DNA of 64,000 nt from UHGV virus genome UHGV-1455077. The stretch is one strand, 5' to 3'. The position numbers and the translations under genes are program-made. Below the pieces are notes generated by a model. That model did no database searches. It saw only the letters and a program-made list of their open reading frames with translations, and was not told the DNA's origin. How positions within the stretch are numbered: position 1 is the stretch's first letter; the number at the start of each line of letters is the position of its first letter. Shown in pieces: positions 6,118 to 64,000 of this stretch. This stretch comes from a virus.

Positions 6118-6193
6118 ATAAAATTAATATTGAAACAAATTTTATTTTAGATGTATAGTTTAAATAAAATTTTTGTGTGGGAAATTATAATTA

Positions 6194-9821: not shown

Positions 9822-9831
9822 CAAATTAAAT

Positions 9832-9865
9832 AAAGTGTGATATTGTAGTATCACACTTTATTTTT
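9832..9865 (+). terminator. Rho-independent terminator after thyX
   Basis: 11-bp perfect stem AAAGTGTGATA/TATCACACTTT, 6-nt loop, then TTTTT. Confidence 0.75.
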
Positions 9866-9877
9866 AGGAAAAAAATT

Positions 9878-12042: not shown

Positions 12043-12045
12043 TTT

Positions 12046-13242: not shown

Positions 13243-13243
13243 A

Positions 13244-14401
13244 ATGAAGAAAACAACTTTACCGCCAATGATAAATCATTGTTTTTTGATGTTATCTGAA
13301 CAATGTAATTTAAGATGTAAGTATTGTTATATTCAAGGGAGAGATAATCCATATACTATTGATATTTCGGTAATGGAAAAAATTAAAAAAATGTTTACTT
13401 GCTATAATAAGCCACGAATTATATTTTTTGGTGGAGAACCATTATTAAGAGTGAATTTAATTAAAGAAATTGTTAAAAAATATAAAGATGATTTTCAATA
13501 TCAAGTTGTTACAAATGGAACAGTAAATTTTAATGAATTTATGGATGAAGTATATCAACCATTTAATCATATTTTTGATGTTCAAATTTCGTGGGATGGT
13601 AATATTGATACTCGTAAATCTGTAACTAATAAGATTACAAATAATATTGTATATGATAATATTATTACTCAATTAAAAAAAGGGTATAGATTAGAAGGAA
13701 GATGTGTTTTAGATGAAACATCAGTAAAAAATTTTTTTGAAACTTACAAAATATTTAAAGATTTACATCATACATATAAATTTAGTGGAGATTTTACAAT
13801 AGCTCATCAGCCCCAATTTAAAGAATCATATTGGAATGATTTGGAAGTTCAATTAAATTTGATTTTTTCTGATATTAAAAATAATTTAGTTAATGATAAT
13901 AAAATTTATATTCCACGATTTTTATATAAAAACATTACTAATGTTATTGAAAATAAGCCAGTAATATCTTGTGATGTTGGAAATTATGTTGTTATCCGTC
14001 CAAATGGAGATATATATCCTTGTACTATTTTATCGCAAATAGATGAAAGATTTAAAATGGGGAATATCAATGATGAAATTGATACAGAAATTATAGACGA
14101 TTTAAAATATAAATCATCTTGTAAAAAAGAATGTGAATATAAATCTATATGTGATGGTGGTTGTCGTTATGAAAGAATAAAAAATTTTTCAAATAGTTGG
14201 AAAGAAAATATATGCCCATTTACTTGTGAAATTTATAAGGTTATTTATGAATGTACAAACAAATTTTTAAATTCATTAGATGCTGACCAACAGAATAAAT
14301 TGTATGAACTGATTACTCAATATAATTTATGGAGTATTGATTATTGTAATGGTAGTTCAAAATTAAATAAAGATGACGGAATGATAAAATTAAATGTATA
14401 A
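13244..14401 (+). CDS. Radical SAM/SPASM enzyme (rSAM-3)
   Basis: ATG at 13244, 1 nt after rSAM-2 stop (the ORF track starts at an upstream TTG); CNLRCKYC cluster; GGEPLL; C-terminal CKKECEYKSICDGGC. Confidence 0.85.
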   Translation: MKKTTLPPMINHCFLMLSEQCNLRCKYCYIQGRDNPYTIDISVMEKIKKMFTCYNKPRIIFFGGEPLLRVNLIKEIVKKYKDDFQYQVVTNGTVNFNEFMDEVYQPFNHIFDVQISWDGNIDTRKSVTNKITNNIVYDNIITQLKKGYRLEGRCVLDETSVKNFFETYKIFKDLHHTYKFSGDFTIAHQPQFKESYWNDLEVQLNLIFSDIKNNLVNDNKIYIPRFLYKNITNVIENKPVISCDVGNYVVIRPNGDIYPCTILSQIDERFKMGNINDEIDTEIIDDLKYKSSCKKECEYKSICDGGCRYERIKNFSNSWKENICPFTCEIYKVIYECTNKFLNSLDADQQNKLYELITQYNLWSIDYCNGSSKLNKDDGMIKLNV

Positions 14402-15571: not shown

Positions 15572-15583
15572 ATAATTTATAAT
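15555..15583 (+). promoter_or_regulatory. Sigma70-type promoter TTGACA-N17-TATAAT upstream of the DNA ligase gene
   Basis: TTGACA at 15555-15560, 17-nt spacer, TATAAT at 15578-15583; ATG at 15616. Confidence 0.6.
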
Positions 15584-15615
15584 CTTCATAAAAAATAATT
15601 TATGGAGATTTTTTT

Positions 15616-17550: not shown

Positions 17551-17554
17551 TCTA

Positions 17555-17582
17555 TTGACAAAATAAAAATTTATGTTACATT
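17555..17582 (+). promoter_or_regulatory. Candidate sigma70-type promoter TTGACA-N16-TACATT
   Basis: TTGACA at 17555-17560; weak -10. Confidence 0.3.
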
Positions 17583-17619
17583 AAACCTATCAATTTATTT
17601 TTGATAGGTTTAATTTATT
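17583..17619 (+). terminator. Rho-independent terminator after ligA
   Basis: 11-bp stem AAACCTATCAA/TTGATAGGTTT, 7-nt loop, then an A/T-rich tract. Confidence 0.5.
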
Positions 17620-17634
17620 AAATTGAGGTATAAA

Positions 17635-19785: not shown

Positions 19786-20072
19786 TGATGATAACTGATG
19801 AACAATGGAAAAAAATGACAAGCGATGTTTTTTCAATTTTTTTGCCATCATCAGAAATTGTTGAAAAAATAGAAGTAAGCTGGTATAATGGAGAAGTTAA
19901 AGAATTTAATACTTCTGGAGAATTAATGGCTTATTTATATACTTTGCAAGATTATGTAGATTATGATATTTTTCAAATTATAAAAATGAATTTTAAATTG
20001 AAAGATGAAGAAAAGCATAAAAAAGATATAGATTATTTAGTTCAACAAGTTATAAAAAATATTGGGGGTTAA
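19785..20072 (+). CDS. Hypothetical protein
   Basis: 95 aa; ATGATG overlap with previous stop. Confidence 0.4.
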   Translation: MMITDEQWKKMTSDVFSIFLPSSEIVEKIEVSWYNGEVKEFNTSGELMAYLYTLQDYVDYDIFQIIKMNFKLKDEEKHKKDIDYLVQQVIKNIGG

Positions 20073-20090
20073 TTAACCCCCCATTTTTTA
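20063..20090. terminator. Bidirectional terminator between convergent genes
   Basis: TGGGGGTTAATTAACCCCCCA palindrome with T-runs on both strands. Confidence 0.7.
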
Positions 20091-23269: not shown

Positions 23270-23291
23270 TAAAAAATATGAAAATCTTTCT

Positions 23292-23299
23292 AATAAATA
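23292..23299 (+). promoter_or_regulatory. Late-promoter-like box AATAAATA
   Basis: 24 nt upstream of ATG 23324, followed by AAGGATTTTTAATTATG leader. Confidence 0.4.
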
Positions 23300-23323
23300 A
23301 AAATATTAGAAGGATTTTTAATT

Positions 23324-23875
23324 ATGGATATTATTGATACTCGTAGAACTTTTGATGAAGATTATGCTAAAATGCGTTATACTTTGTATATTCAAAAAGT
23401 TAATACTTTATTAGAAAATCATCAAAAACCTCATAACAAAAAATATAAGCAAGGTTTTTTCATTCCAAAAAGACCTCTTAAAGTTATGAATATTATGGAA
23501 ACTACTGAACCACAACCAATTGTATGGAGAAGTAGTTGGGAAAAAGATTTATGTGAATGGTTAGATACAACCGATGCAATTGTTCGTTGGGGTTCAGAAA
23601 TTGTTCAAATTTTATATCGTGACCCAACAAAAAATAAAATGTCTTTTTATACTCCTGATTTTTATGTTGAATATTTGGATGCTAATAAAGTTCTTAGAAA
23701 AACAATGATTGAAGTTAAACCATTAAAAGAAGCTACACTTAAAAAAGCATCAAATGGTTGGGATAAAATTTTAGTTGCAAAAAATGCAATGAAATGGGTT
23801 GCCGCTAATGAATATTGTAAAAAACGAGGAATTACATTTAAAGTTATGCACGAACATAATTTAGGAATTTTATAA
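23324..23875 (+). CDS. PD-(D/E)xK nuclease-fold protein
   Basis: YTPDFYVEY...IEVKP (D...E-V-K) core; 183 aa. Confidence 0.45.
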   Translation: MDIIDTRRTFDEDYAKMRYTLYIQKVNTLLENHQKPHNKKYKQGFFIPKRPLKVMNIMETTEPQPIVWRSSWEKDLCEWLDTTDAIVRWGSEIVQILYRDPTKNKMSFYTPDFYVEYLDANKVLRKTMIEVKPLKEATLKKASNGWDKILVAKNAMKWVAANEYCKKRGITFKVMHEHNLGIL

Positions 23876-25360: not shown

Positions 25361-25459
25361 AAAAAATCCAATATAAATAATGTTATAATAATATTTATTG
25401 AAGGTATAATAAATTATTTAATAACTTACATTCAATAAGAAAATAGAATAAATAAACAT

Positions 25460-26443
25460 ATGAATGAATATAAAATTTATAAATTAATATTCCCAAATGG
25501 AAAAGTATATATTGGACAAACTAAGCAAGAAATTCAAAAAAGATGGGGATTTCAAGGAAAAGGTTATAAGAATTGCCCTAAAGTATATAATGCTATTTTA
25601 AAATATGGGTGGGAAAATGTTAAAAAAGAAATTTTATACGATAAATTAAATCATAATGATGCAAATATGTTAGAGATTAAATTAATAACAGAAGTATATA
25701 ATAGTAATAACAATAATTTTGGATATAATATTGAAAATGGTGGAAATACAATAGGAACACATTCGGAAGAAACAAAAAGGAAAATTGGTGAAGGTAATAA
25801 AGGTAAAATTGTATCATTAGAAACCAGAGAAAAAATAAGACAAAAAAATAAAAATAAACACTATAGTATACAAACAGAAATTTCAACTGGGCAACATTTA
25901 AGTTTTTTAACAGAATTTAAAAAAGGGGATATTCCGTGGAATAAAAATAAAAAATGCCCTCAAATTTCACAAAGGCTATATGGAAGAAAACTTTCAGAAG
26001 AAACAAAGATAAAAATTGGAGAAGCAAATTCTGGAAGAAAAATGTCCAATGAATTAAAATTAAAATTAAAATATATTAATACTGGAAGAAAACTTTCAGA
26101 AGAAACAAAAAGAAAAATTGGTGAAGGTAATAAAGGTAAAATTGTATCATTAGAAACCAGAGAAAAAATAAGACAAGCTAAATTAGGAAAGAAAGCAAGT
26201 AATGAAGCAAAAGAAAAATTAAAAAATATTTGTAAAATGTCAAATATGAAAAGAAATCAGCATTTAATATTTTTTAATGAAAAGATGTATAATTTAAAAG
26301 AATTATCAGAACTATTAAATGTTAAATATGCAACATTAAGAATGTATATCAGTAAATACTCAAAAATTTTAGGTGAACAAGAAGCAATAAATAAAATGAT
26401 TAAATACTATGGGGAAAAATATGACAAGTCCAGCGAAAAATAA
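25460..26443 (+). CDS. GIY-YIG homing endonuclease with duplicated NUMOD3-like DNA-binding modules
   Basis: YKIYKLIFPNGKVYIGQT (GIY...YIG) near N-terminus; repeated SEETKRKIGEGNKGKIVSLETREKIRQ modules. Confidence 0.8.
   Translation: MNEYKIYKLIFPNGKVYIGQTKQEIQKRWGFQGKGYKNCPKVYNAILKYGWENVKKEILYDKLNHNDANMLEIKLITEVYNSNNNNFGYNIENGGNTIGTHSEETKRKIGEGNKGKIVSLETREKIRQKNKNKHYSIQTEISTGQHLSFLTEFKKGDIPWNKNKKCPQISQRLYGRKLSEETKIKIGEANSGRKMSNELKLKLKYINTGRKLSEETKRKIGEGNKGKIVSLETREKIRQAKLGKKASNEAKEKLKNICKMSNMKRNQHLIFFNEKMYNLKELSELLNVKYATLRMYISKYSKILGEQEAINKMIKYYGEKYDKSSEK
25766..25843 (+). repeat. 78-bp direct repeat, copy A (copy B at 26099-26176, 1 mismatch)
   Basis: In-frame duplication 333 bp apart inside the GIY-YIG gene. 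Confidence 0.85.
26099..26176 (+). repeat. 78-bp direct repeat, copy B
   Basis: Identical to 25766-25843 except one base. Confidence 0.85.
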
Positions 26444-26942
26444 AGGTAATTCATTTGAACGAGAAGTTGCCAAATTTTTAACTACTATTTTTAATGAGCA
26501 TTTTAATAGAAATATTAGCGGTAGTGGTTCATATATTGGTGGTAATAATATTTATAGAAAGCAGATATTATCAGATTCGCAGGTTTGGAATAATCAAGGA
26601 GATATAATTTGTCCTGATTCATTTAATGGTAAACTTATAATAGAATGTAAATTTTATAAAGATTTTCCTTTTCATCATTTTTTAATTAATAAATCAATCC
26701 CTTTATTAGATGATTGGATAAAACAACAACTTACTATTGTAGAGGATAATAATATTTGGTTTATTGTATTTAAAATAAATCGTGTTGGAAGTTACATAGT
26801 TATTCCTGAAAAAATAATAGATATTGATGATTCATTGGGAAATCATTCAATATATTATAATAATGGAAATAGATATATCATAGCAGAATTTGAATCTTTT
26901 ATTAAATTATATAAAAATCAGATTAAAGAAAAATGCCTTTAA
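26409..26942 (+). CDS. PD-(D/E)xK nuclease-like protein
   Basis: FEREVAKFL...GDIICPD...LIIECKFYK; overlaps the 3' end of the GIY-YIG gene by 35 nt. Confidence 0.4.
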   Translation: MGKNMTSPAKNKGNSFEREVAKFLTTIFNEHFNRNISGSGSYIGGNNIYRKQILSDSQVWNNQGDIICPDSFNGKLIIECKFYKDFPFHHFLINKSIPLLDDWIKQQLTIVEDNNIWFIVFKINRVGSYIVIPEKIIDIDDSLGNHSIYYNNGNRYIIAEFESFIKLYKNQIKEKCL

Positions 26943-28728
26943 TATTATTTCCATAATATCCATTTAATATTGCTTGTACGCCTTCTTTGGAAATTGATTG
27001 ACCGTCATAGTTTGATATTTTTTGTTTAATGCTTTCATCTGTTCCTGTAACTTTTGTATCATTAAAACGTGATAATAAATGACGACATAAGTTAATAAAT
27101 TTTGGTTTATTTTTATAAAAATTAAAATAAAAATATTCAGTTTTTTGTCCTTGTTTAAAGCATTTTAACATAAATTCATATGATGCTGGGTCACAACTGA
27201 ATAATATAGCATCAGATGACATAATATATTTAATATCTTCTTGTATTTCTGTTAATTTATTTTCTGTTAGAACATTCTTTTTTAATAAGAAGTATTCAAT
27301 AACAATTTTATTATTAAACATATCAATAGTATCTTGTTCCATATGTATTTTAGGAAAATAAGTTTTTAATATTGAATTATTATCTAATTTTTTTGCTTGT
27401 TCTATAAACCATTTTTTGTCATCATCAGTATAACCATCATTTTTTTTAAAATTATAATCTTGAAAATATACATTTCCATTATATGCAAATAAATGTTTGG
27501 TATTTCTAACATCATATTCTTCTTCAACTTGATGATGAAGTAATGGAGTATCGGCTGACCATATAGCAATTCCTGTATTTGATAATAAAATACGATACCA
27601 TTTATTTCTTTTTACTAAATCATTAAATTCTTTTTTTGTGGGATTTAATAATACTTCAATATCATCAATATAATCATAATCTTCCATAATGTTACTTGAA
27701 TTATCAACCATTCTTTGAGGTAATTGGTCTTTTGTATTTAATCCAACTCCTCTTATATCATATTTTTTAAATTGAATATTTTTAAATAATGGAACTTGTT
27801 GCATTTTTTTAAGTTCATCTGGAGCATTATAATAAGATGGAGCTAATTCATTATTTCTAAAAATAACATATTGATTATCATCTAATTTTCCAATAAAAGC
27901 ATATTTATATCCATCAGAACGAGAAAAGGATTTATAATCAGTTTCATCAATTACTTTAAACATTGCACAATTTTTATCCAGATATTCATAAATTTCTTTA
28001 TCAACAATTGGATATGACAAATGCTCTTTTCCATATAATTTCATTTTTTCAATTAAATCTGCGTGAATAACATTATATGCATCGCCAAAAATATAAATTT
28101 TATGTTTTAAATCATATATTCCACGAACAGGGTTTTTGGTTAATAATGTTGAAATCATTTGTTTAGCTTCAGATTCAGAAGATGTATAATAAAGAATAGG
28201 ATTTTCTGAATAATCTTTAACAAAAGATTCATATATGTTATTACTATTGGGATTCCAATCACCATTATTATCAATTGATTTAATTTGATTTGGCTCAAAT
28301 ACAATTATTTCACTTACAAAATCCATACCATTTTCAGGAAATCCAACAATAATACCATCATAATCTTTTAATAATTCTTTATTTCTAAAATAAACAGCTT
28401 TTTCTAATTCTTCTGGCATATCTCTATTAAACCAAAGAGGATTTTCCATTTTTAAATAAACAGATTTTAATTTAGAACCATAAGATTTTCCAACACTATA
28501 ATTAGGAGTAAAATAAATTCCAGCACCAAAATGACCATTTATTGATTTATTAAAAGAATTAAATTTGTTATTTGTTCCGTGATAGCAAATTAATGGATTG
28601 CCATTTTCATCTACGATTTTAGAATTGCCAAACCATTTCCAAAAATTATCATTTAAATTATTATTTAAATCATTTTTAGATTCTTTAACAAGTTCTTTAA
28701 TTAAATTATTATATTTGCCACGATACAT
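26923..28728 (-). CDS. Large protein with an N-terminal PARP-like (H-Y-E) ADP-ribosyltransferase domain
   Basis: CYHGTNNKFNSF...GAGIYFTPNYSVGKSY parallels PARP WHGSRTTNFAGI...GKGIYFADMVSKSANY; C-terminal region homologous to ORF 51068-53182. Confidence 0.6.
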   Translation of the reverse strand: MYRGKYNNLIKELVKESKNDLNNNLNDNFWKWFGNSKIVDENGNPLICYHGTNNKFNSFNKSINGHFGAGIYFTPNYSVGKSYGSKLKSVYLKMENPLWFNRDMPEELEKAVYFRNKELLKDYDGIIVGFPENGMDFVSEIIVFEPNQIKSIDNNGDWNPNSNNIYESFVKDYSENPILYYTSSESEAKQMISTLLTKNPVRGIYDLKHKIYIFGDAYNVIHADLIEKMKLYGKEHLSYPIVDKEIYEYLDKNCAMFKVIDETDYKSFSRSDGYKYAFIGKLDDNQYVIFRNNELAPSYYNAPDELKKMQQVPLFKNIQFKKYDIRGVGLNTKDQLPQRMVDNSSNIMEDYDYIDDIEVLLNPTKKEFNDLVKRNKWYRILLSNTGIAIWSADTPLLHHQVEEEYDVRNTKHLFAYNGNVYFQDYNFKKNDGYTDDDKKWFIEQAKKLDNNSILKTYFPKIHMEQDTIDMFNNKIVIEYFLLKKNVLTENKLTEIQEDIKYIMSSDAILFSCDPASYEFMLKCFKQGQKTEYFYFNFYKNKPKFINLCRHLLSRFNDTKVTGTDESIKQKISNYDGQSISKEGVQAILNGYYGNNIKGIFL

Positions 28729-39042: not shown

Positions 39043-39285
39043 ATGGATAAAGAAAAATTACTTGATTTTATTCAAAAATATAATATTGTTCCACAGAAGT
39101 ATTATATTTTTGAAGAAGGAAAATTAAAAGTTAAATATACACTTATGAATGGTTCTTATGAATGTGAAAGAATTATGGAACAAGTTCAAAAAGAATTTGA
39201 TGTTGATTTTTATACATTTGCATATGAAGCTTTTTGCTTGTTGAATATTAAATATTCACAAGAAAATGAATTTTTTATTGATTAA
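39043..39285 (+). CDS. Hypothetical protein
   Basis: 80 aa; strong promoter and RBS. Confidence 0.5.
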   Translation: MDKEKLLDFIQKYNIVPQKYYIFEEGKLKVKYTLMNGSYECERIMEQVQKEFDVDFYTFAYEAFCLLNIKYSQENEFFID

Positions 39286-45593: not shown

Positions 45594-45611
45594 AAAATCC
45601 CTTGACAAATA

Positions 45612-45647
45612 AAATCCTTATGTTAAATTATGAACATAAGGATTTTT
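45612..45647 (+). terminator. Rho-independent terminator whose 3' arm contains the AAGGA Shine-Dalgarno of the next gene
   Basis: 13-bp stem AAATCCTTATGTT/AACATAAGGATTT then TT; ATG 45653 lies 10 nt after AAGGA. Confidence 0.6.
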
Positions 45648-45652
45648 AATTT

Positions 45653-49728: not shown

Positions 49729-49767
49729 TATATATTTTTGTTAATTTTTACAACAACTAAATTTAAG

Positions 49768-49797
49768 AATCTCCTTGGATTTTTCAAGGAGATTTTT
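49768..49797 (+). terminator. Rho-independent terminator
   Basis: 10-bp stem AATCTCCTTG/CAAGGAGATT, loop GATTTTT, then TTT. Confidence 0.7.
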
Positions 49798-49820
49798 AAG
49801 TAAATGAATAAAAATAATAT

Positions 49821-51067: not shown

Positions 51068-53182
51068 ATGAAATTATATAGAGGTTATAATAAAGATTAT
51101 CCAAATTGGGGAATTAGACCAAATCAAAATTATATTTGGACGACTGATGATATTGATTATGCATTAGAGTATACTAAATTATTTGATAATGGCGGTTTAG
51201 TTGAATTTGATGTAGATGTAAATCAATTAAATTTAGCAGATGATTATGATGGTGAAGAATTATTTGGCGATGAATGGTATGATTTTGGTGGTTTGATTGA
51301 TGCTGATAATGATATGATTCAAGTTTTTATAGATAATGGTTTTAATTCAGCATTATTAGATAATAGTGGGATTGATTGTTATTTATTATTTGATAAAAAA
51401 TTAATTAAATCCGCAAAAGAATTACCATTAAATAATATTGAAAATAAATTAAATGAATCTTATCAATTATTTAAAAATATATATTTAAAAGAACATACAG
51501 GATTTATCGTAAGAGAAACACCAGCATCATATCTAACATATATAAAAAATTACATACAAAAAGTTCTTGATTATGAGCCAAATGCAAACAATTATCCCTT
51601 TATTACAGAAGATAAAAAATATTATTGGGATAGAATTGCAGGATATTATAATGTAGATACTAAAGAATTCATTTATATTTCACCCGATGAAACACATCAA
51701 AATGAAGAAGAATTTTATGAAAAAAATTATGTAAGATTTTTTATAGCAGATATAAAACATAGAGCATTATATGTTTCACATATTGATTATAATATTGCCT
51801 ATAAAGGCTATAAAGCTATAAAAGAAAAATATAAAGATTTTGGAATTGAATATTCTGTTGTTGAATGGTATGAAAACAATGATTGGAAAGAAATAACTTT
51901 TGATGATAAAGGACATAAAGTTAAAATAACTCAAATTTATGAAGAATTTAAAAAATATGTAATGCCATTATATGAACAACATTTTAATAAAGAAATTAAT
52001 GAAGTTTTAAGAATTGCTGGGGTTCAACGATTAAATGAATCTTGGACGGATAGTAATAATTTATATAATATATATGAAAATTATACACCATATAATGTTT
52101 TAGTGGCATTTAAAGAAGGTGAAAAAAACATTTGGTTTCCATTGATTAAACCAACAGAATATAAACAAGCGTTATTGGAATTTATGAAAATGGGTGAATT
52201 AGTAAGATTTCCAAAAGATAAAGTATTTAAATGGTTAGAAATAATTATGAAAAATACTTGTATTTTAAGCTCTAATACTTTTTTAGCAGGTCACGAAATG
52301 TATTTTCCATTTGACGATATTATAGATGCTTATCCAGAAGCAGAAAATCTTGAACAAGATTATTATGTTTTTTCTAAATTTTTAGAAGATAAAGGTTTTT
52401 ATAATTGGTGTAAATTGCCAGATGGTTCACCTGCTTGGAGTGATTATGGATTAAAACCATTATGGAATATATTAGATGAATATAAAGAAGATATGACTAT
52501 TGAACAAGTTCTTGTATTGGTTAATAGATGTTTAGATGTTTATCATCAACAAGGAGATTTAGCATCAGCATTTATTGAAGGTGGTTCATCATCATTAACA
52601 AAAATTTCTAATGAATGTGTTAAAAATAATGGTAATATAATTAATGAATCATATTTGAAAACAGATAATGGGATAATTTATTATACAAAATCAGAAAATG
52701 TTTTTATTAATACTATAAATGCAAGATTTAAGAATATACCTGTTAGAGTAATTTATGATTTAAAAAATAGATTATATGTATTTGGTGATGCTAATAAATT
52801 TGTTCATACACAAATGATGAATTATATTCTTATTAACACAAAATTATATTCTACAAAAGGGTGGAATCAAAGTTATTTTAATGAAGATGGTAATTATTGG
52901 CGAGATGGATATATAGAGGATAATTTATTTAATGCACAATGTGCTTTATTTCAAATAATTTGGGATGATGATATTGAAAAATATACAAAATATGATGGAT
53001 ATGATACAGGATATTTTACCACAATAGATAATAAAATGTATGTTGTTTGTAGACAGAATGAATTAAAATATTGTGAAAAAGTACCTTTATTATGGAATAA
53101 TCATTGGTTTTCACAAAAATATGATAATATGAAAGATTTTCAATTAAATGAATCTATATTTGGAGAAACACTTGGTTATTAA
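51068..53182 (+). CDS. Large modular protein; the N-terminus may be an R-S-E (Alt-like) ADP-ribosyltransferase; internal linker motif; C-terminal domain shared with ORF 26923-28728
   Basis: LYRGY...WTTDD...EY at N-terminus; NEVLRIAGVQRLNE at about aa 309-322; VRVIYDLKNRLYVFGDANKFVH resembles VRGIYDLKHKIYIFGDAYNVIH. Confidence 0.5.
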   Translation: MKLYRGYNKDYPNWGIRPNQNYIWTTDDIDYALEYTKLFDNGGLVEFDVDVNQLNLADDYDGEELFGDEWYDFGGLIDADNDMIQVFIDNGFNSALLDNSGIDCYLLFDKKLIKSAKELPLNNIENKLNESYQLFKNIYLKEHTGFIVRETPASYLTYIKNYIQKVLDYEPNANNYPFITEDKKYYWDRIAGYYNVDTKEFIYISPDETHQNEEEFYEKNYVRFFIADIKHRALYVSHIDYNIAYKGYKAIKEKYKDFGIEYSVVEWYENNDWKEITFDDKGHKVKITQIYEEFKKYVMPLYEQHFNKEINEVLRIAGVQRLNESWTDSNNLYNIYENYTPYNVLVAFKEGEKNIWFPLIKPTEYKQALLEFMKMGELVRFPKDKVFKWLEIIMKNTCILSSNTFLAGHEMYFPFDDIIDAYPEAENLEQDYYVFSKFLEDKGFYNWCKLPDGSPAWSDYGLKPLWNILDEYKEDMTIEQVLVLVNRCLDVYHQQGDLASAFIEGGSSSLTKISNECVKNNGNIINESYLKTDNGIIYYTKSENVFINTINARFKNIPVRVIYDLKNRLYVFGDANKFVHTQMMNYILINTKLYSTKGWNQSYFNEDGNYWRDGYIEDNLFNAQCALFQIIWDDDIEKYTKYDGYDTGYFTTIDNKMYVVCRQNELKYCEKVPLLWNNHWFSQKYDNMKDFQLNESIFGETLGY

Positions 53183-53572: not shown

Positions 53573-53585
53573 TTGATTTTTCCTA

Positions 53586-53613
53586 TTGACAAGTAATTTT
53601 TATATGTTATATT
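53586..53613 (+). promoter_or_regulatory. Sigma70-type promoter TTGACA-N16-TATATT
   Basis: Upstream of ORF 53649; the leader can form a hairpin ATTAACCTT...AAGGTTAAT around GAAAGG. Confidence 0.5.
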
Positions 53614-53648
53614 AACCTTATCAAAAACAACAATGAAAGGTTAATAAA

Positions 53649-54020
53649 ATGAAAACTTCTGATGAATTGAATGAACTGATGGCTTATGCTACTGGAACTG
53701 AAAATTATTATCGTTTCGGTTTGATTAATCCAATTCTTATTACCGATGGAGTTGAAACATTTGCAAAAAATGCTGAAACTGTTTGGTTTTTGAATGACTT
53801 TTGCATTTTTATGAATAAATGGATTAATAAAAATGCTGATGAGTATTTGTTTTCTGTTGAATTAATTTCTAAAAATGACAAAGGAAAAATGGTCATTAAA
53901 GATGGTGAAGGCAATAGATTGTATTCAAAAAATTATGATTATACTGACTGCCCAGAAGGAAATTGGAAATTCTTTTATGATAAAGAATCAAGAGTGTTGA
54001 TGTGGCACGGTGAATATTAA
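53649..54020 (+). CDS. Hypothetical protein
   Basis: 123 aa. Confidence 0.45.
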   Translation: MKTSDELNELMAYATGTENYYRFGLINPILITDGVETFAKNAETVWFLNDFCIFMNKWINKNADEYLFSVELISKNDKGKMVIKDGEGNRLYSKNYDYTDCPEGNWKFFYDKESRVLMWHGEY

Positions 54021-54031
54021 AAAATATAAAA

Positions 54032-54064
54032 ATCCCTGTAATAAATATCATTATAGGGATTTTT
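54032..54064 (+). terminator. Rho-independent terminator
   Basis: Stem ATCCCTGTAAT/ATTATAGGGAT (1 mismatch), loop AAATATC, then TTTT. Confidence 0.65.
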
Positions 54065-54075
54065 AGGATATAAAT

Positions 54076-54774
54076 ATGGAAATATCAAAATTTATGAAGA
54101 CTGTTTTAGAAATGGCTGGCGTTGAAGAACCGTTAGAAGAAATGGCTTATCCAATAAATTTTAATTTAGAAGAATTTTCTCGTATTCCAACATTTAGTGG
54201 AAGAAAAAAATATTGTGATGAGCGTTTGCAAAAAATAGGTACAGGTTCTTCCAGAATTGTTTACAGAGTTGATGATGAAAAGGCGTTAAAAATAGCTAAA
54301 AATAAAAAAGGTATTGCTCAAAATGAACACGAAGCTGATTGGGGTAGAAATAATTATGATATTTTTGCAAAAATTTATGAAGCTGATGAGAATAATTATA
54401 CTTGGATTGAAATGGAATTGGCATCAAAAATTAAACCATCTGATTTTAAAAGATTAGTTGGTGTTTCTTGGGCAGAAGTATGTTTAACAATAGAATATAT
54501 TTATGATATATATAAACCTAATAAAAATCCATATTATGTTAAAAGATATAATAGTGATTTAATGGAAAAATTTATGAATGAAGAAGTTTATTCAGAAAAA
54601 AATGAATTTCTTTTTAATTTATATGGATATATGACAGATTATCAACCAATGATGATTAATGATTGGACAAGAATCGCAAACTGGGGGATAGTTGAACGTA
54701 ATGGGCAGGAATTACCTGTTATTATTGATGATGGATTGGATGAATTAATTTATAAAACTTATTATGGATGGTAG
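54076..54774 (+). CDS. Hypothetical protein whose N-terminus carries the shared linker motif
   Basis: MEISKFMKTVLEMAGVEEPLEE resembles NEVLRIAGVQRLNE. Confidence 0.45.
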   Translation: MEISKFMKTVLEMAGVEEPLEEMAYPINFNLEEFSRIPTFSGRKKYCDERLQKIGTGSSRIVYRVDDEKALKIAKNKKGIAQNEHEADWGRNNYDIFAKIYEADENNYTWIEMELASKIKPSDFKRLVGVSWAEVCLTIEYIYDIYKPNKNPYYVKRYNSDLMEKFMNEEVYSEKNEFLFNLYGYMTDYQPMMINDWTRIANWGIVERNGQELPVIIDDGLDELIYKTYYGW

Positions 54775-54777
54775 AAA

Positions 54778-56175
54778 ATGAAAATAATTGCATATCACGG
54801 AAGTCAAACAAGTAAATTGAAAATGTATAATGGTTCTGCTTTGTATTTTACAACAAGTTATGAACAAGCTAAATCATATGCTAAACGTGAATGGGATGAA
54901 GGGCTAATTGAGGGAGAAATTCCTGTTGTATATAAAGCTGAATTAACTTTTAATAATCCTTACAAAATTGAAAATTATGATGATTTTCAAATGGAATTTA
55001 CAGATAGTAATATGAATGAATATTTTAGAGAAGAATTAATTGAAAAAGGATATGATTCTGCTATTTATAATGATAGAAAATCAACTTTGATATGTATTTT
55101 TTATCCTTCACAATATAAAATTTTAGATATAGAAAAACTTCCACCTTCATTAGACTATTATTATAATGGAGAACTTAATGATGAAGATGATGATATAAAT
55201 GACTATTATTATGAAAACGACTATGAAGATGAATTAAATGAAGTATTAAAATTATCTAATATTAAACTTATTAATGAGCAAAAAGATTTTACAACATTTC
55301 AATTACCTAAAAATATACCAAGTAATTTTTTTAAAATAACTAATTCATTAAAAGATATAAAAAATTGGAAAGCGAGAATTTTAGAAAATAATAGTGGCGG
55401 TGAAGAATTAAAAGTTGGTGATTATGATGAAGTTGGATATGTAATGATTTCATTAAAAGATAATACTATTATTCCAATTGCTCATTCCGATGAACATCAT
55501 CGTGGATATGATATTATGTATGAAATATATGAATCAAAATATAAAATTCATCCGAGTAATTTTTATAGCGTTTATTGCTTACCAAATTCTGCCAATTATC
55601 CATATAGTAAAGAAGAAGCTGATAAATTAAAAGATGCTTTAATTAAATGTGATGAATATGGAATGGATTTGGATACATCTAAAGTTTATTTAAAATATAT
55701 TGATAGTCTTTATAAAAATAAATCATATGATGAATCTTTAATTTCTGCCAGAGATTTTATTTCTGGAAAATATGGGTTGGCATCATTTGGAGAAACTGTT
55801 TCTCTTATTGGTGAGAAGTTGGTAGATGCATTTAAAAATTTATCAAATACATTTGAAAATACAAATGTTCGTGGAGATATTCCAATAACACAATTAAAAA
55901 TGGCTGTTAAAAAATTATATACAGTTGGTAGTCGTATTCAACTTCCAGATAAATTTAAGTTAATCAATCCATTAGATTTAGAAGAAATGATGGATATTAT
56001 TGAACAATATAAATCTAAATATATTGATATACAAAAATTATATAAATTATTTTTTGGATTTAATGGATTTAGAAATATTTTTCATCAAAGACTAAGAAAA
56101 AATATTGGCAATGAAGATTTAAATAAACAATTAGGTTCAGTTAAAGTTGTCATTGAAATGATAGGGGCAATATAA
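54778..56175 (+). CDS. Protein with an N-terminal PARP-like (H-Y-E) ADP-ribosyltransferase domain and an internal linker motif
   Basis: AYHGSQTSKLKMYNGSALYFTTSYEQAKSYA; linker DELNEVLKLSNIKLINE at about aa 152-168. Confidence 0.55.
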   Translation: MKIIAYHGSQTSKLKMYNGSALYFTTSYEQAKSYAKREWDEGLIEGEIPVVYKAELTFNNPYKIENYDDFQMEFTDSNMNEYFREELIEKGYDSAIYNDRKSTLICIFYPSQYKILDIEKLPPSLDYYYNGELNDEDDDINDYYYENDYEDELNEVLKLSNIKLINEQKDFTTFQLPKNIPSNFFKITNSLKDIKNWKARILENNSGGEELKVGDYDEVGYVMISLKDNTIIPIAHSDEHHRGYDIMYEIYESKYKIHPSNFYSVYCLPNSANYPYSKEEADKLKDALIKCDEYGMDLDTSKVYLKYIDSLYKNKSYDESLISARDFISGKYGLASFGETVSLIGEKLVDAFKNLSNTFENTNVRGDIPITQLKMAVKKLYTVGSRIQLPDKFKLINPLDLEEMMDIIEQYKSKYIDIQKLYKLFFGFNGFRNIFHQRLRKNIGNEDLNKQLGSVKVVIEMIGAI

Positions 56176-56966: not shown

Positions 56967-57296
56967 ATGAAAAAAATATTAATTATTTTATTAGCTATTT
57001 TATTATGTGCCTGTACAACCGTTAAAACTGAATATGTTTATCAAACTGTTTATCCAGAATTACCACAGCTTGAATCTCCATTAATTTTAGCAAATATTCC
57101 TTGTACATTTATAATGCCTGAAAACCCTGATGAAAAAATTTTTATTGGATTTGATAAAGAAAATTATAAATGTTATTTAAAAAATCAAGAAATAAATCGT
57201 GAACAGAAACTTCTTTTTGAAAAATTTGTATCAGAAATTAACAAAGAAAGAAAAAATTGGAATTTTAAAAACAAAAAGATTGACAATAAAAAATAA
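56967..57296 (+). CDS. Lipoprotein
   Basis: Signal peptide MKKILIILLAILLCAC with lipobox LLCA-C; 109 aa. Confidence 0.5.
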   Translation: MKKILIILLAILLCACTTVKTEYVYQTVYPELPQLESPLILANIPCTFIMPENPDEKIFIGFDKENYKCYLKNQEINREQKLLFEKFVSEINKERKNWNFKNKKIDNKK

Positions 57297-57331
57297 ATGA
57301 TTTAAGATGACCTCAAAATAGAGGTATAAGT

Positions 57332-58009: not shown

Positions 58010-60270
58010 ATGAACAAAGTATGTTAACTGAAATAGGGTTACAAGCTACCGAATTTCTTAAAAAATCTAAGGCTAAAACATTATTACCTGTGCATTTTTT
58101 AGCGGCTTTGTTACAATTTGATTATATTAAAAATCTTCTAAATAATAAAAAACCAGAAGAATATAAAAAATTGGTTGAAGAAGTTAATGATTTCATTTTT
58201 AATTCAGATAAAATTGAAAAGTTAACTGATGAAGATGACCCAAATGAAATGGAAATTAGTCCTTTAATAAGTGCTTACATTTCATATGTGAGTGTATGCA
58301 GTAAAGGAAGTGCTGATATTATAAAAGTTATTCCTGAACTACATTGGATTGATTTATTAGGAGCATTTTTATTTTTAAAGACTGATATTTCAACAATTAT
58401 TTTAACAAAATATGGAATTAATTTAGAGTTTATTGATGAAGTTTTTGAAGAACTGACCGCTGATATTATTATTGAAGAAAGAATCAAACCAATTATCAAT
58501 AATCAAACCAATGAAAATAATGCGGAAGAAGAATATTTGAAATCTTTTACAATAAATTTAACTGAAAAAGTTAAATCTACTGATTGGATTCCTATTGTTG
58601 GAAGAACAGACGATTTAGATTTAATAAAACAAATTTTATTAAGAAAAGACAAACCTAATGTTTTATTGGTTGGATATTCAGGTGTAGGTAAAACAAAATT
58701 AGTTGAAGGTTTGGCTTATGATTATTTAACATATGATAAGAATACAACATTTTTACAATTAGATACATTATCTTTAATGTCAAATATTGGTATTAAAGGT
58801 GAGTTAGAAAATCGTATTAAAAATTTGTATAGAATTATGATGAAAAAAGAAAATATTATATTATTCATTGATGAAATTCATACAGTATGTAATTCATCTC
58901 CTAATTCTGGGCAAATTGATATATCTAATTTATTAAAACCATTACTAACTGATGGAAAATTAAAACTTATAGGGGCAACAACATTTGAAGAATATAGAAA
59001 ATATATGGAAGATGATGAAGCTTTTACCAGAAGATTTTATAAATTAGTTATTAATGAGCCAACATTTGAAGAAACACAAAAAATTCTTGCTCAAATTTCA
59101 TCAAAATATGAATATTTTTATAAAATAAAATATTTAAAAAGAGCAAGAGATTCAATTTTGGATTTAACAAAAAAATATATGTTTGAAAAACATTTTCCTG
59201 AAAAAGCTATTGATGTACTGGATATGGCAGGAGCATATTGTAAGCATATTAATGAATGTGTATGTGATGTTCCACAAATTCAACAAACAATTGCTAGAAT
59301 GTTAAATCTTCCATTATCAACTGTTTCCCAGACTGAAGAAAATATGTATCAGCATATTGAAGAAAACCTTAAAAAAGAAATCATTGGTCAAGATGAAGCT
59401 GTTAAACAAGTAAGTGATGCTGTAATCATTTCTCGGTCTGGCTTACGAGAATCAAATAAAACAGCATCTTCGCTGATGTTTAAGGGTTCTTCTGGTGTGG
59501 GTAAAACAGAATTATGTAAAGTATTAGCTAAATCAATGAATATACCATTGATACGTTTTGATATGTCAGAATATATGGAAGAACATTCTGTACCAAAATT
59601 AATTGGTGCCCCTCCAGGATATAAAGATGCAGGCAATGGTAAAGCAGGAAATGGATTATTAATTAATGCAATTGATGAAAATCCATATTGCATATTATTA
59701 CTTGATGAGATAGAAAAAGCTCATCCGAAAATTCATAATTTACTTTTACAAGTAATGGATAATGGTAAATTAACATCGTCAATGGGTAAAAGTGTATCTT
59801 TTGAAAATGTATTTTTAATTATGACTTCAAATGTTGGGTCATATAATAGTCATAAAATTCGTATTGGATTTGGTAATACTGATGAAAGTCCATCTGATAA
59901 GGATTTTGAAGATAGCTTTTTGCCTGAATTTAGAAATCGTATTGATTCAGTAATTACATTTAATGATTTACCATTAAATGTGTTAAAAGAAATTTGTAAA
60001 AAATTTCTTAATGAATTAAAAGAAATGTTAAAGCAAAAAAAGATTGATTTTGTTTTTAATGATGATATTATAGAGTATATCATTTCAAAGGTTAAATCAT
60101 CTAAAGATGGTGCAAGACCGATGAAGCACGTTATTACTAATGAAATCAAAAATGAAATAGCAAAAAATATTGTATTTGGAAAATACAATAAAAATGATAA
60201 AATAAAATTATCAATTAAAAACAATATTATTAATTTTGAGGTTGTGAAAAAATGTTTGAAAGAAGATTAA
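57994..60270 (+). CDS. clpA: ClpA-like AAA+ unfoldase (two ATPase domains)
   Basis: 758 aa; Clp-N-like N-terminus; Walker A GYSGVGKT (D1) and GSSGVGKT (D2); LLLDEIEKAH Walker B; no ClpB middle domain. Confidence 0.75.
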   Translation: MSIELNEQSMLTEIGLQATEFLKKSKAKTLLPVHFLAALLQFDYIKNLLNNKKPEEYKKLVEEVNDFIFNSDKIEKLTDEDDPNEMEISPLISAYISYVSVCSKGSADIIKVIPELHWIDLLGAFLFLKTDISTIILTKYGINLEFIDEVFEELTADIIIEERIKPIINNQTNENNAEEEYLKSFTINLTEKVKSTDWIPIVGRTDDLDLIKQILLRKDKPNVLLVGYSGVGKTKLVEGLAYDYLTYDKNTTFLQLDTLSLMSNIGIKGELENRIKNLYRIMMKKENIILFIDEIHTVCNSSPNSGQIDISNLLKPLLTDGKLKLIGATTFEEYRKYMEDDEAFTRRFYKLVINEPTFEETQKILAQISSKYEYFYKIKYLKRARDSILDLTKKYMFEKHFPEKAIDVLDMAGAYCKHINECVCDVPQIQQTIARMLNLPLSTVSQTEENMYQHIEENLKKEIIGQDEAVKQVSDAVIISRSGLRESNKTASSLMFKGSSGVGKTELCKVLAKSMNIPLIRFDMSEYMEEHSVPKLIGAPPGYKDAGNGKAGNGLLINAIDENPYCILLLDEIEKAHPKIHNLLLQVMDNGKLTSSMGKSVSFENVFLIMTSNVGSYNSHKIRIGFGNTDESPSDKDFEDSFLPEFRNRIDSVITFNDLPLNVLKEICKKFLNELKEMLKQKKIDFVFNDDIIEYIISKVKSSKDGARPMKHVITNEIKNEIAKNIVFGKYNKNDKIKLSIKNNIINFEVVKKCLKED

Positions 60271-60770
60271 GTTATGAGGAAACTTTAAAACTCATTGAAA
60301 GGGGTATTTTACAAGTAAATAATGTTCATATTTGTTTAGATAATTTATCTAAACATTCAACAGATGAATGGATAATTGAATCCATTAACATTGATAAAGA
60401 TAAACAAGAGATTATATTTGGTGTTCAGCCGTTGTTCTTTCCAATTACCAGTAGTCAAGAACCAATTCCAGTTCCATATAAAATGATTAAAGAAGTTAGC
60501 AATATGCCTATTGAATGCCTGTTAGAAGCATATGATATGGCAGAAGCAAAAAGAGTTATTGAAGTTTATTTAGAAACTGATATTGAAACTGATGTTATTG
60601 GAAAAGAAGATGTTGAATTCGAAGGATATGAGTTGTATGATGGATTACAATTTATATTACATAATGATAAAACTGCCAAATATAATGATAAGATATTAAC
60701 TGTTAAAGGGGTTGGAGAAGCAATAAGATTTGTTGCAAATAGAGGACGACCTCGTAAAAAAAGAAATTAA
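60252..60770 (+). CDS. Hypothetical protein with a C-terminal AT-hook
   Basis: Ends with ANRGRPRKKRN (RGRP core). Confidence 0.45.
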   Translation: MFERRLSYEETLKLIERGILQVNNVHICLDNLSKHSTDEWIIESINIDKDKQEIIFGVQPLFFPITSSQEPIPVPYKMIKEVSNMPIECLLEAYDMAEAKRVIEVYLETDIETDVIGKEDVEFEGYELYDGLQFILHNDKTAKYNDKILTVKGVGEAIRFVANRGRPRKKRN

Positions 60771-60791
60771 ACGAATAAAATGGTTAAAGAA

Positions 60792-60828
60792 AATCCTTAT
60801 AAATATAATTATAGTTATAAGGATTTTT
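60792..60828 (+). terminator. Terminator hairpin containing an exact T4-late TATAAATA box (60798-60805) and the SD of the next gene in its 3' arm
   Basis: 11-bp stem AATCCTTATAA/TTATAAGGATT, 12-nt loop, then TTT; ATG 60830. Confidence 0.6.
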
Positions 60829-60829
60829 A

Positions 60830-62143
60830 ATGGTTTATTATAGATATGAAAATATTGGATATTGTCAAATAGATAAAAATGTCAGTTGTGACCAAATAGC
60901 TTCAACTAAAAAGCAAGCTATTAACTCAACTCGTAAAAAACCGAGTACCAAAACAACACCAACTCCATTAATACCAGTACAGCCAACAAAACCTCGTTAT
61001 ACTGGAGCAAATCATAGTCATTATGAAAGTTCAGTTACAGATAAACGAGTATATTTAAATGTATCTCCATTAGCAAAAAATAATGAAGAATATATTGATA
61101 GAATTAGATATGTTTTAGGAAGTGAAACTAGAACTTATAATGGTTCAAATATTTATGGCTTTTTATATAAATGTCTAAAGCCAACTGTTGGTATTGTATT
61201 TCCATATACGCCAAGAATATCAATTAATCACCAAGTTAATTATGAACGAACAGAAATTATTCATTCAAATTTAGCGGTGAGCCATTATAAAAATACTCCA
61301 CCACCAACTTATAGCATTGATGCTGTTTTTACTGCTGATTCAAAAGAAATGGCAAGACATATGTTATCTGCTATTTGGTTTCTTCGTGCAGTAACAAAAT
61401 GTGATTTTGGCGAAACAGCAAATAATCGTGGAGATAATAGTGTTGCTGGTATGCCACCACCAATTTTATATTTAAACGGTTGGAATAATTTATTAGATAA
61501 TATACCAGTTGTTGTTAAATCTTTTAGTTATACATTACCTGATGACCAAGATTATGTTGGATTAGGATTAAATTTAAATTTATCAACATTTGAGAGTATT
61601 AATCAATTATATACTGATTCAGTAACGGGAGAATTTTATGATACTGGATATGGTGATAAAATTAATATGAATAATACATCTGAAACAAGATATATTAATG
61701 GTATTCCTGTTAATACTTCAAAAATTATAACTCAACCAACCGCAACAGGTGTTAATAAAAATGATAGATTCTATTTAAAGAATTGGTTACCAGTTGAATT
61801 ACAAATGCATATTGAATTAGAAGTTCAACCAAATTTACAAAAATACAAAAAACGTTTTGATTTAGATTATTATAAAATGGGCGTTATGTATTTAGATAAT
61901 TATAAAGGCGGAACAACTATTTTAGTTCCCGATTCTGTTTTAAATTGTGTACAAAAAGTTGCATATAATGATGATGGAACAAGAAATGATGAATTAACAC
62001 AGAATTTAAAAAATATGTCAGTAAGTTCAATTCAAAAAGACGTTGAAAGTAATTCAAATGTATATGCAGATGATTCCGTTTCAGCAGGATTTGCAATGAC
62101 ACCCCGAAAATATAGTTTTGATAGAGCTGGTTGGACTTGGTAA
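60830..62143 (+). CDS. Putative late/structural protein (unknown function)
   Basis: 437 aa; late-type promoter; followed by tightly packed ORFs. Confidence 0.45.
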   Translation: MVYYRYENIGYCQIDKNVSCDQIASTKKQAINSTRKKPSTKTTPTPLIPVQPTKPRYTGANHSHYESSVTDKRVYLNVSPLAKNNEEYIDRIRYVLGSETRTYNGSNIYGFLYKCLKPTVGIVFPYTPRISINHQVNYERTEIIHSNLAVSHYKNTPPPTYSIDAVFTADSKEMARHMLSAIWFLRAVTKCDFGETANNRGDNSVAGMPPPILYLNGWNNLLDNIPVVVKSFSYTLPDDQDYVGLGLNLNLSTFESINQLYTDSVTGEFYDTGYGDKINMNNTSETRYINGIPVNTSKIITQPTATGVNKNDRFYLKNWLPVELQMHIELEVQPNLQKYKKRFDLDYYKMGVMYLDNYKGGTTILVPDSVLNCVQKVAYNDDGTRNDELTQNLKNMSVSSIQKDVESNSNVYADDSVSAGFAMTPRKYSFDRAGWTW

Positions 62144-62152
62144 GGATAAAAA

Positions 62153-62446
62153 ATGGTAGAATTTAGTGATTATAGTTTATATACAAATACACCTGTTAAT
62201 CAATTTTATCGTGGTTATTATCAACCTATTGATATTCCACAAGATTCAAGTGATATGTTTATGTTAATTCCAAGTGATTATCAATATAAACCAGGTGGTT
62301 TAGCATATTTATTATATGGTTCAGCCAGATTAAGTTGGATATTCTCATATTTTAATAGAGAAAAGATTTCAGACCCAATATTTGATTTTAAAGAAGGTTT
62401 AATTATTCGTTGTCCAACAAAAGAAAGATTAATGACCTATTTTTAA
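62153..62446 (+). CDS. Hypothetical protein
   Basis: 97 aa; AAGGA RBS. Confidence 0.4.
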   Translation: MVEFSDYSLYTNTPVNQFYRGYYQPIDIPQDSSDMFMLIPSDYQYKPGGLAYLLYGSARLSWIFSYFNREKISDPIFDFKEGLIIRCPTKERLMTYF

Positions 62447-62460
62447 AGGATAAAAATTTA

Positions 62461-64000
62461 TGGCTTTTTATGATGAGCAAGTTGATAAAGAATTAAAAAA
62501 ATGGAATTACCAACCTAATTTGTTACAATTTTATGATAATGTAACTTATAATATTCGTTGGTATATGGTACCTCACGATATTCAAGATTATATTATTGAA
62601 CAAAATAAAACAGGTTCTAATTCGGTTTATGTTCCTGATAGCTCTAAAATTATTATAATGGAAACAGGAGTAAGTTCAAACTATTCTTTAGATAGTTTTA
62701 CAATGAAAAATGCATTTGGTGTTGTTGGCTCTGATAATTCAATTAATATTAATATGAATATGACAGTTAAAGAAATTAACGGTTGTTCATTATTTAATAA
62801 AATTACAGCAATTTCTAAATTATTAGGATATGAAAATCCTATGCAAATTCCATTTTTTATTGATATTTGGTTTACTGGTTATGAACCACCAAAAAATAAT
62901 CCTATTAATCCTATTGGTGGATTAATTACTTATAGTACAATTGTAACAAGTTGTGAATCAGATGTCGTGGATTCAGGAACAACTTGGCAAATAAAAATGG
63001 TTGGAACATCAATGGGTATTGTTTCAAAAGATATAAGTTTGTTAAATAATATTGCACCAATAAAAGCAGTAACTGTTGAAGATTTTAAAAAGAATTTAGA
63101 AGAACAAATTAATTTACAATATTTTAATTTACATCCAGAATTAAAAAAATTTTTTCCTTCTGGCGATTTTGTAACTATTAATTTATATTCATCAGAAGAA
63201 TTTTTAGAAGATACTACTCAATATCAAGATAATCAATCAACAATTAATAATGAAAAGGATTTAACTTCAACATACGGATATGAGTGGACATATAAAAATA
63301 CAAAAAATGGGCAGTTATCAAATAATGGAACTTTATATTCAATGACTGAAAATGGAAAATATATTCCTATTGGTTCAGCATTACCAAAATCTACATCTCA
63401 AAAAAGTAAACAATATACTCCTTTTAATAATTTTAAAGATTGTATTTTTGATAAAGTTGGAGAAAATATTGATACTGCGAATAAAGGACAAATAGTTTAT
63501 AAAGTTAATAATAATGATTTATTAGAAAATGTTTTTCAAGAAGTATGTCATCTTTCACCGCAATTAAGAGATAGAATTGCAAAAGTTATTTTTAATGCAA
63601 CACCATTAATTAATCGTGAAGGTCGTGAAGTTTATAAATTAACGATGAATGTATTTTTTAAAAAAAATTATTTTTTAAAATGGTTTATTGAAACAAGTAA
63701 GCAATTTGCATATGAAAATAATCCAAATGATACATCATCTATGGCAATTGATGCATATAATAAAACAATTCAACAAATGCAACTTGATTCATTAAATGAT
63801 ATGAAAATAACTAATGGATTAAAAAAGAGATATAAGTATTTGTTTAATGGAGAAGATACAAGTGTATTAGAATTAAATACAAAAATTGATAAATTATGGT
63901 ATTTAAATTCATCACAAAATTATTTAGCTGATACTGTTGCTAATACACCAAACATAACTACTTCTCTTGAAAATGCCAAACGAGTTCAAGATTTAATTGA
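62461..64000 (+). CDS. Hypothetical protein (partial, runs off the window end)
   Basis: Open frame from ATG 62461 with AAAGGA RBS to the window end. Confidence 0.45.

Follow-up and report, generated by a model that had tools for sequence, protein, structure and literature searches.

A hairpin directly upstream of a baseplate gene in the UHGV virus genome UHGV-1455077 probably functions as a dual-state leader, in which the RNA start site determines whether the gene can be translated. The element was identified in a 64,000-nucleotide (nt) stretch of this genome, referred to below as the window, and it precedes ATG 60830, the start of a 437-aa gene that opens the baseplate operon. The probability of this reading is put at about 0.7. 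It draws on the anatomy of the hairpin, on the predicted accessibility of the Shine-Dalgarno (SD) sequence in two kinds of RNA, on compensatory changes among related phages, and on the position of a T4-type late promoter box within the stem-loop.

The intergenic stretch between the stop codon of the preceding 172-aa gene (60770) and ATG 60830 reads AAAATCCTTATAAATATAATTATAGTTATAAGGATTTTTAATG. The hairpin begins 20 nt past that stop codon, and its stem consists of 13 perfect pairs between the arms listed in Table 1, extended by three inner pairs. The arms can also be given as 19 nt with 95% complementarity, and four U of the U-tract are able to pair with the AAAA upstream. The stem contains just two G-C pairs. 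The original prediction for this locus described an 11-bp stem formed by AATCCTTATAA (60792-60802) and TTATAAGGATT (60815-60825), with a 12-nt loop and a T-tract; coordinates, loop and T-tract hold, and only the length needs correction, the stem being 13 bp long. The same prediction placed TATAAATA across the 5' arm and the loop and took TAAGGA of the 3' arm (60818-60823) as the SD sequence of ATG 60830. Both assignments are borne out at their exact coordinates, and the spacer from GGA to the ATG is 6 nt.

The isolated hairpin has a folding free energy of -11.8 kcal/mol. Within a 90-nt context the value is -16.8 kcal/mol (z = -3.06), with one of 200 shuffles folding as well, and local fold z-scores range from -3.1 to -4.0 across analyses. 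The window contains seven perfect stems that have 13 bp or more and loops of 3-20 nt, whereas 100 dinucleotide shuffles average 0.31 and never exceed 2. Five of these stems fall between genes, in a window of which intergenic DNA makes up 3.6%. Two lie within coding sequence, at 7033-7081 (open reading frame (ORF) 6194-8089) and at 39071-39115 (ORF 39043-39285). No Rfam family matches at the hairpin; the interval 60000-61500 gives one sub-threshold snoRNA match outside it, at 60117-60179, which at 17.1 bits falls short of the gathering score, 35. These figures bear on the possibility that the element is a chance palindrome in DNA of 25% G+C that happens to carry a chance TATAAATA. Such an origin would suit a window of 75% A+T in which the exact 8-mer is under-represented (14 copies observed vs 30 expected) and in which one plus-strand copy, at 54069-54076, is merely the spacer and start codon (AGGATATAAATATG) of gene 54076. 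It does not suit the excess of long stems and the fold scores, the conservation of hairpin and box while their flanks diverge, or the enrichment and positioning of the box and its link with structural genes. The comparative data effectively refute the chance reading, which can scarcely be credited, and the narrower argument for chance from the rarity of exact TATAAATA is overturned by the analysis of position, strand and 7-mers presented below.

Folding predictions point to two states of the leader. In read-through RNA (60700-60880), the probability that the SD sequence is unpaired is 0.001. In RNA starting at A60811, where T4 spacing places the box at -13 to -6, it is 0.54, and starts from 60806 to 60816 give values of 0.22-0.71. 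The proposed mechanism is that read-through RNA from the upstream ClpA-like operon would hold both arms and fold a hairpin of 13-16 bp, in which AAGGA pairs with the anti-SD sequence TCCTT and the baseplate gene remains untranslated. In this phage, the hairpin and its U5 run may also terminate part of the read-through transcripts. A putative late sigma factor of the gp55 type would direct RNA polymerase to the box, with initiation near A60811, about 6 nt further downstream. This predicted start lies in the loop; late transcripts would accordingly not include the 5' arm, their SD sequence and AUG would be accessible, and translation of the 437-aa gene would thus be tied to late transcription, to an extent that is itself inferred. 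Read-through into the structural operon is realistic, judging from the sequence, because the upstream genes are co-directional and lie behind a sigma-70-like promoter. The prediction that late RNA without the 5' arm frees the SD sequence is therefore supported at the assumed start. The companion claim, that read-through transcripts terminate at the hairpin and/or have the SD sequence occluded, fares well for occlusion, on account of both the pairing probability and the compensatory changes described next; termination is plausible but not conserved.

Homologues of the 437-aa gene were gathered from metagenomes and IMG/VR. The near clade is A+T-rich, shares 38-79% identity and the same gene order, and contributes 19 distinct upstream sequences; the near-identical strains L001-L011 carry an identical hairpin and are therefore uninformative for conservation. 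Exact TATAAATA or ATAAATA precedes the homologue in all 19 near relatives, 22-42 nt from the ATG, while the flanks diverge. In 13 of the 19, the SD sequence is unpaired with a probability of at most 0.01 in read-through RNA and of 0.33-0.83 in box-initiated RNA, whose start was set 6 nt after the box. The sequence of the helix changes among these relatives: its arms are UUGUUUCCUUAAUA / UAUUAAGGAAACAA in L019 and AAAAACCUUAAUAAA / UUUAUUAAGGUUUUU in L035, and in L115 and L116 it is rebuilt from other sequence and extends across AUG or GUG. Nine of 16 pairs change on both sides in the arm alignment, and the covariation score is 0.244, compared with 0.106 in shuffles (0/500 as high) and 0.045-0.091 for slid partners, in an alignment anchored on the folds of the individual sequences, which biases it towards structure. 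From an unfitted alignment, RNAalifold recovers the 6-bp core UCCUUA/UAAGGA helix only. The helix thus appears, at the level of sequence, to be maintained by compensatory change across the relatives.

Compensatory change also bears on the idea that the inverted repeat acts as DNA, as an operator at which a dimeric regulator (a late repressor or the AT-hook-like neighbour) would bind over the box. The repeat does overlap the box, sequence is strongly conserved beyond pairing in most relatives, and the upstream protein ends in RGRPRKKRN. In L019, L035, L115 and L116, however, both arms change together, so that pairing is preserved and a recognition sequence is not. The arms are wholly different among the hairpins of the phage, the centres of the half-sites lie about 25 bp apart, and what the arms conserve at their core amounts to the SD sequence and its complement. 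An operator is accordingly considered very improbable.

More distant homologues provide a natural contrast. In a clade of 34-45% G+C, the upstream neighbour of the baseplate gene is a divergent gp55-like sigma gene (70 loci), and no read-through is possible from that side since the gene is divergent. Of 44 distinct loci with such a neighbour, 42 keep a TAAATA box and 4 mask the SD sequence. CBB carries exact TATAAATA 28 nt before CBB_243, a homologue of about 30% identity, and has no hairpin there; CBB and the 70 distant loci are thereby set apart from the present clade by a divergent sigma gene upstream and, those four maskers aside, by the lack of a masking hairpin. The hairpin appears, from these sequences, to be found where a co-directional gene lies upstream. 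Its presence in co-directional relatives and not in divergent ones is an argument for read-through as the selective pressure that favours such hairpins.

The comparisons with near and distant relatives also help to judge whether the hairpin is an intrinsic (Rho-independent) terminator of the ClpA-like operon, its overlap with box and SD sequence resulting from tight packing and the masking being incidental. Like such terminators, it follows a stop codon directly and combines an A-tract, a stem-loop and a U-tract (AAAA before and UUUUU after the stem), and its stability equals that of the clear terminator between convergent genes at 20056-20089. Other terminator-like hairpins of the window carry GGA or GGAG in the 3' arm without a nearby start, as at 49765-49800, and sigma-70-like promoters overlap hairpins too. 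Unlike the usual terminator, however, this stem is built from the SD sequence of the next gene and encloses that gene's promoter. The low number of G-C pairs is atypical as well, and a consensus terminator scan missed the hairpin, although it also misses other AT-rich hairpins and is thus uninformative for this genome. A U-tract of at least four is present in 7 of 13 type-A relatives and absent in six (L115, L116, L019, L021, L023 and L024), in which pairing of the SD sequence or AUG is kept, partly via new sequence; hairpin and U-tract are not conserved together at orthologous positions, and divergent-neighbour loci keep the box without the hairpin. The absence of the U-tract from these six relatives suggests that what is conserved is masking, with termination as a dispensable addition. 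That the hairpin is a terminator and nothing else is considered unlikely; the odds that it also terminates transcripts in this phage are put at roughly even.

The second component of the proposed leader is the late promoter box. T4 late promoters consist of an 8-bp TATA box at -10, with A frequent or tolerated at -13, and have no -35 element (PMC2988020), and the related Rak2-like jumbo phages CBB and GAP32 combine a gp55-like sigma factor with ATAAATA, a predicted late promoter motif, before structural genes (PMC5259590). All six plus-strand copies of TATAAATA in the window sit 0-80 nt upstream of plus-strand starts. The eight minus-strand copies are all intragenic, seven of them antisense to plus-strand genes and one sense, at 27902 in the minus-strand gene 26923-28728. 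ATAAATA is the most enriched 7-mer at -50 to -12 of starts, occurring before 13 of 74 genes at 15-fold its genome frequency, with the runner-up at about 6-fold; of the 21 7-mers with this base composition, it has the fewest copies across the genome (46) and the most upstream of starts. Composition-matched shuffles of the same upstream regions contain 5.3 +/- 2.1 copies vs the 13 observed. The start codon lies 20-39 nt past the end of the box, with 11 of 12 spacings falling at 20-31 nt. The motif precedes all five identifiable structural operon starts (Table 1) vs one of 22 identifiable non-structural genes (Fisher p = 7e-5), the sole exception being NrdG. In the left 10-kb flank, a box lies 22 nt before the terminase gene and others before three neighbouring genes, and the tail sheath gene has one at 77 nt. 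The positions following the box at the hairpin (60806-60814, TAATTATAG) are A or T in 8 of 9 cases, an observation of low weight in a genome of 75% A+T. By these sequence measures, which cover about 95 kb of the 289-kb genome, ATAAATA behaves as a genuine promoter-type motif in this phage.

A homing-endonuclease gene (25460-26443, phrog_314) also has exact TATAAATA, 80 nt upstream of its start. The intergenic region there (25361-25459) is divergent and also holds the box of a minus-strand gene, an arrangement that recalls the late-promoter control of T4 I-TevI.

A sister element occurs before the head-closure gene (23324-23875). It combines a box at 23293-23299 with an SD sequence AAGGA at 23310-23314 (z = -5.5), and the predicted probability of an unpaired SD sequence changes from 0.002 in read-through RNA to about 0.43 in the late transcript.

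Several observations weigh against the dual-state reading. The start position was assumed from T4, and starts at 60806-60809 would leave the SD sequence just 22% unpaired. A strong predicted switch is present in just 2 of the 12 box-preceded genes of the window, and a fully paired SD sequence is also found in 6 of 52 genes without a box (about 12%). The hairpin before gene 54076, which encloses ATAAATA (54041-54047) in its loop, was considered as a third masking case and rejected: the stem does not take in the SD sequence, and the predicted switch is opposite to the one required. That hairpin looks like a terminator, and the enclosed ATAAATA is plausible as the box of gene 54076. Relative to local composition, ATAAATA is enriched about 2.4-fold, and at least 1 in 2000 shuffles reached 13 copies. 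Six of the 19 near relatives lack strong masking, their SD sequence being partly paired or free (probability unpaired in read-through RNA, 0.15-0.84), and in L116 box-initiated RNA is less accessible than read-through RNA (0.05 vs 0.23). Five of these six weakly masked relatives, termed type B, form a different stem, with its start within the box. For three of these (L026, L027 and L030), it is the AUG that is paired in read-through RNA (probability unpaired, 0.00-0.11); in L026 and L027, GCCAU just 5' of the box pairs with AUGGC at the start codon, and this strand is lost in box-initiated RNA. The relatives are phylogenetically related and do not represent independent observations, and the arm alignment is biased towards structure.

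The late sigma factor is a further point on this side. Searches with phmmer and tblastn (T4 gp55 and CBB_244) and with a hidden Markov model (HMM) of 120 CBB_244 homologues found a gp55-like sigma factor neither in the window and the 10 kb on either side of it nor in related near-clade loci, a coverage of ~95 kb out of 289 kb, and PHROG scans of about 60 ORFs of the window gave no late sigma factor. The same HMM places a gp55-like sigma gene beside the homologous baseplate gene in the 70 distant loci, and the CBB record annotates such a gene next to CBB_243. The linkage of sigma and baseplate genes is lost in the gut clade, where the ClpA-like operon is found instead. The distant loci (L036-L112 from IMG/VR, and L113, which is CBB 4919-6633) share an intergenic motif, TATAAACTACGCA...GTCAA(A/C)TAAATA.

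Hairpins are associated with promoters elsewhere in the window as well. The similar hairpin with an SD sequence in its 3' arm that had been noted at 45612-45647 exists, shifted by one position (45611-45646), and it shares the arms AAAATCCTTAT/ATAAGGATTTT with the hairpin at 60790-60827; it has no late box, and its SD assignment is ambiguous. Translation downstream may begin at ATG 45665, which has a GGAG of its own. The likeness of the arms is explained by AAGGATTTTT being the usual ribosome-site context of this phage. A sigma-70-like promoter lies over this hairpin, with TTGACA at 45602-45607, a 16-nt spacer and TAAATT at 45624-45629 in the loop. Promoters of this kind (TTGACA-N16-18-TAnnnT) overlap strong hairpins, and the predicted start falls inside the hairpin in 5 of the 7 strong ones of the window. 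One is a perfect TTGACA-17-TATAAT before the DNA ligase gene, and at 9878 a 16-bp terminator-like stem has the -10 element in its loop. Such placement of promoters within hairpins may be a general habit of the genome.

A cassette of the same order, (T)TAATCCTTATAAATA, loop, TAAGGATTA and ATG, precedes other genes in IMG/VR contigs of 34-45% G+C (L248, L250, L266, L276, L252 and L263), including those for a gp5-like baseplate hub, a 114-aa protein resembling a tail-fibre assembly factor and an 883-aa endolysin-like protein. An IMG/VR scan with the 14-mer AATCCTTATAAATA yielded random matches, the 3' arm being present in 0 among the 120 matches listed; a two-arm pattern search worked in its place. 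The occurrence of anti-SD sequence, TATAAATA and SD sequence together in other phage contigs indicates that the device is widespread among phages with T4-type late promoters. Together with the five of seven sigma-70-like starts that lie in hairpins, the cassettes before gp5-like hub genes raise the tentative and rather doubtful possibility of a genome-wide grammar, in which the promoter of the next unit, late (ATAAATA) or early (sigma-70-like), would lie inside the hairpin of the previous one, so that this segment would terminate or mask in RNA from upstream and would be inert in internally started RNA.

The order DnaJ-like gene, ClpA-like ATPase gene, 172-aa gene and baseplate gene lies on one strand and is kept in all near relatives; the first three form the upstream operon. 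The 172-aa protein has no Pfam, PHROG or PDB relative and therefore cannot be called a transcription factor. Its C-terminus (60738-60770, ...NRGRPRKKRN) resembles an AT-hook, and the basic RGRP tail is kept in most relatives (L012-L035, L115-L120), L022 being basic without RGRP. In the 437-aa protein, the N-terminus is conserved and M1 is invariant in the alignment of homologues. The 97-aa protein that follows is 39% identical to CBB_242, annotated as Phage_gp53 in the CBB record, and in CBB the same baseplate module continues into hub/lysozyme and gp25 genes. Many metagenomes, several of which bear a human gut label, contain near-identical contigs of 286-293 kb.

Table 1. Coordinates of the leader hairpin and of other features of the window
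Feature	Position	Strand	Description
Hairpin 5' arm	60790-60802	+	AAAATCCTTATAA; contains anti-SD TCCTT
Hairpin loop	60803-60814	+	12 nt; 3 inner pairs possible; predicted late start A60811
Hairpin 3' arm	60815-60827	+	TTATAAGGATTTT; SD AAGGA at 60819-60823
T-run TTTTT	60824-60828	+	SD-to-ATG spacer; possible terminator U-tract
T4-type late promoter box	60798-60805	+	TATAAATA; phage's own consensus nATAAATA; conserved at homologous loci
gp13-like adaptor	3535 (start)		Structural start with box
Head-closure gene	23324 (start)		Structural start with box
gp25-like wedge operon	31408 (start)	-	Structural start with box
Virion-protein operon	49856 (start)		Structural start with box
Baseplate operon	60830 (start)	+	Structural start with box
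Sister element	23281-23318	+	Before head-closure gene; arms AAAATCTTTCTAATA / TATTAGAAGGATTTT
Hairpin before gene 54076	54027-54065	+	-16.6 kcal/mol; ATAAATA in loop
Hairpin of the original prediction	45611-45646	+	14 bp, 8-nt loop, -14.6 kcal/mol; no late box
Sigma-70-like promoter with hairpin	9822-9877		
Sigma-70-like promoter with hairpin	15572-15615		
Sigma-70-like promoter with hairpin	17551-17622		
Sigma-70-like promoter with hairpin	45594-45652		
Sigma-70-like promoter with hairpin	53573-53648		
Sigma-70-like promoter with hairpin	57280-57331		
Sigma-70-like promoter of upstream operon	57280-57308	+	TTGACA-17-TAAGAT; consensus match, presumed active; likely origin of read-through RNA
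172-aa gene	60252-60770	+	Last upstream gene; syntenic in all near relatives
437-aa virion/baseplate protein	60830-62143	+	phrog_12050; CBB_243 homologue; first gene of baseplate module
97-aa gp53-like baseplate wedge subunit	62153-62446	+	phrog_7145; second gene of module
716-aa virion structural protein (start)	62460-64000	+	phrog_11190; third gene of module; runs off window

Other features of the genome concern its host and its variability. Anaerobic ribonucleotide reductase NrdD/NrdG, a radical-SAM cluster and an ART-PolyVal-like protein are encoded (233-2919 minus, 9878-14401 and 54778-56175), which suggests a strictly anaerobic host. The 704-aa gene at 51068-53182 varies strongly among the otherwise near-identical strains L001-L010, in which gene calls of 704, 782, 520, 360+330 or 42 aa are obtained. 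Strain L004 has, slightly further downstream, an IS1595-family transposase and two additional genes, placed between the DUF6876 gene (53649-54020) and gene 54076.

The arrangement has well-described counterparts in T4, in which the genes e, soc, 49 and I-TevI possess inhibitory leader hairpins that enclose a late promoter: the helix forms in long early or middle transcripts, which are translated poorly, and late transcripts begin within it and are translated (reviewed in PMC3014915). The present element resembles these cases in the predicted masking of the translation start in long RNA, in the late promoter box inside the helix and in the co-directional genes upstream. It differs from them in belonging to a distant AT-rich gut jumbo phage of a Rak2/CBB-like lineage outside the Tevenvirinae, known here from sequence alone, in regulating a baseplate protein, and in carrying a U-tract. 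A hairpin that sequesters a ribosome-binding site is also attributed to the mobE gene of phage Aeh1 (Gibb and Edgell 2009, as cited in PMC3014915), which, as described in that citation, is a homing endonuclease gene and so of a different class from the baseplate gene. With CBB and GAP32 the phage shares the same ATAAATA before structural genes (PMC5259590). By this analogy, the proposed mechanism is the known device of T4 e, soc, 49 and I-TevI and would not be new; new is its apparent occurrence in a distant lineage.

This finding would extend a T4 timing device to an uncultured AT-rich jumbo phage of ~289 kb, a distant relative of T4 that is common in metagenomes from the human gut. It also marks the 437-aa gene, with the rest of its operon, as predicted late genes. 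Together with the early-promoter motif, nATAAATA at 20-39 nt before the start codon may allow temporal classes to be predicted from sequence in phages that cannot be grown. The homologous loci, with a hairpin where the upstream gene is co-directional and none where it is divergent, offer a natural comparative series for this form of regulation.

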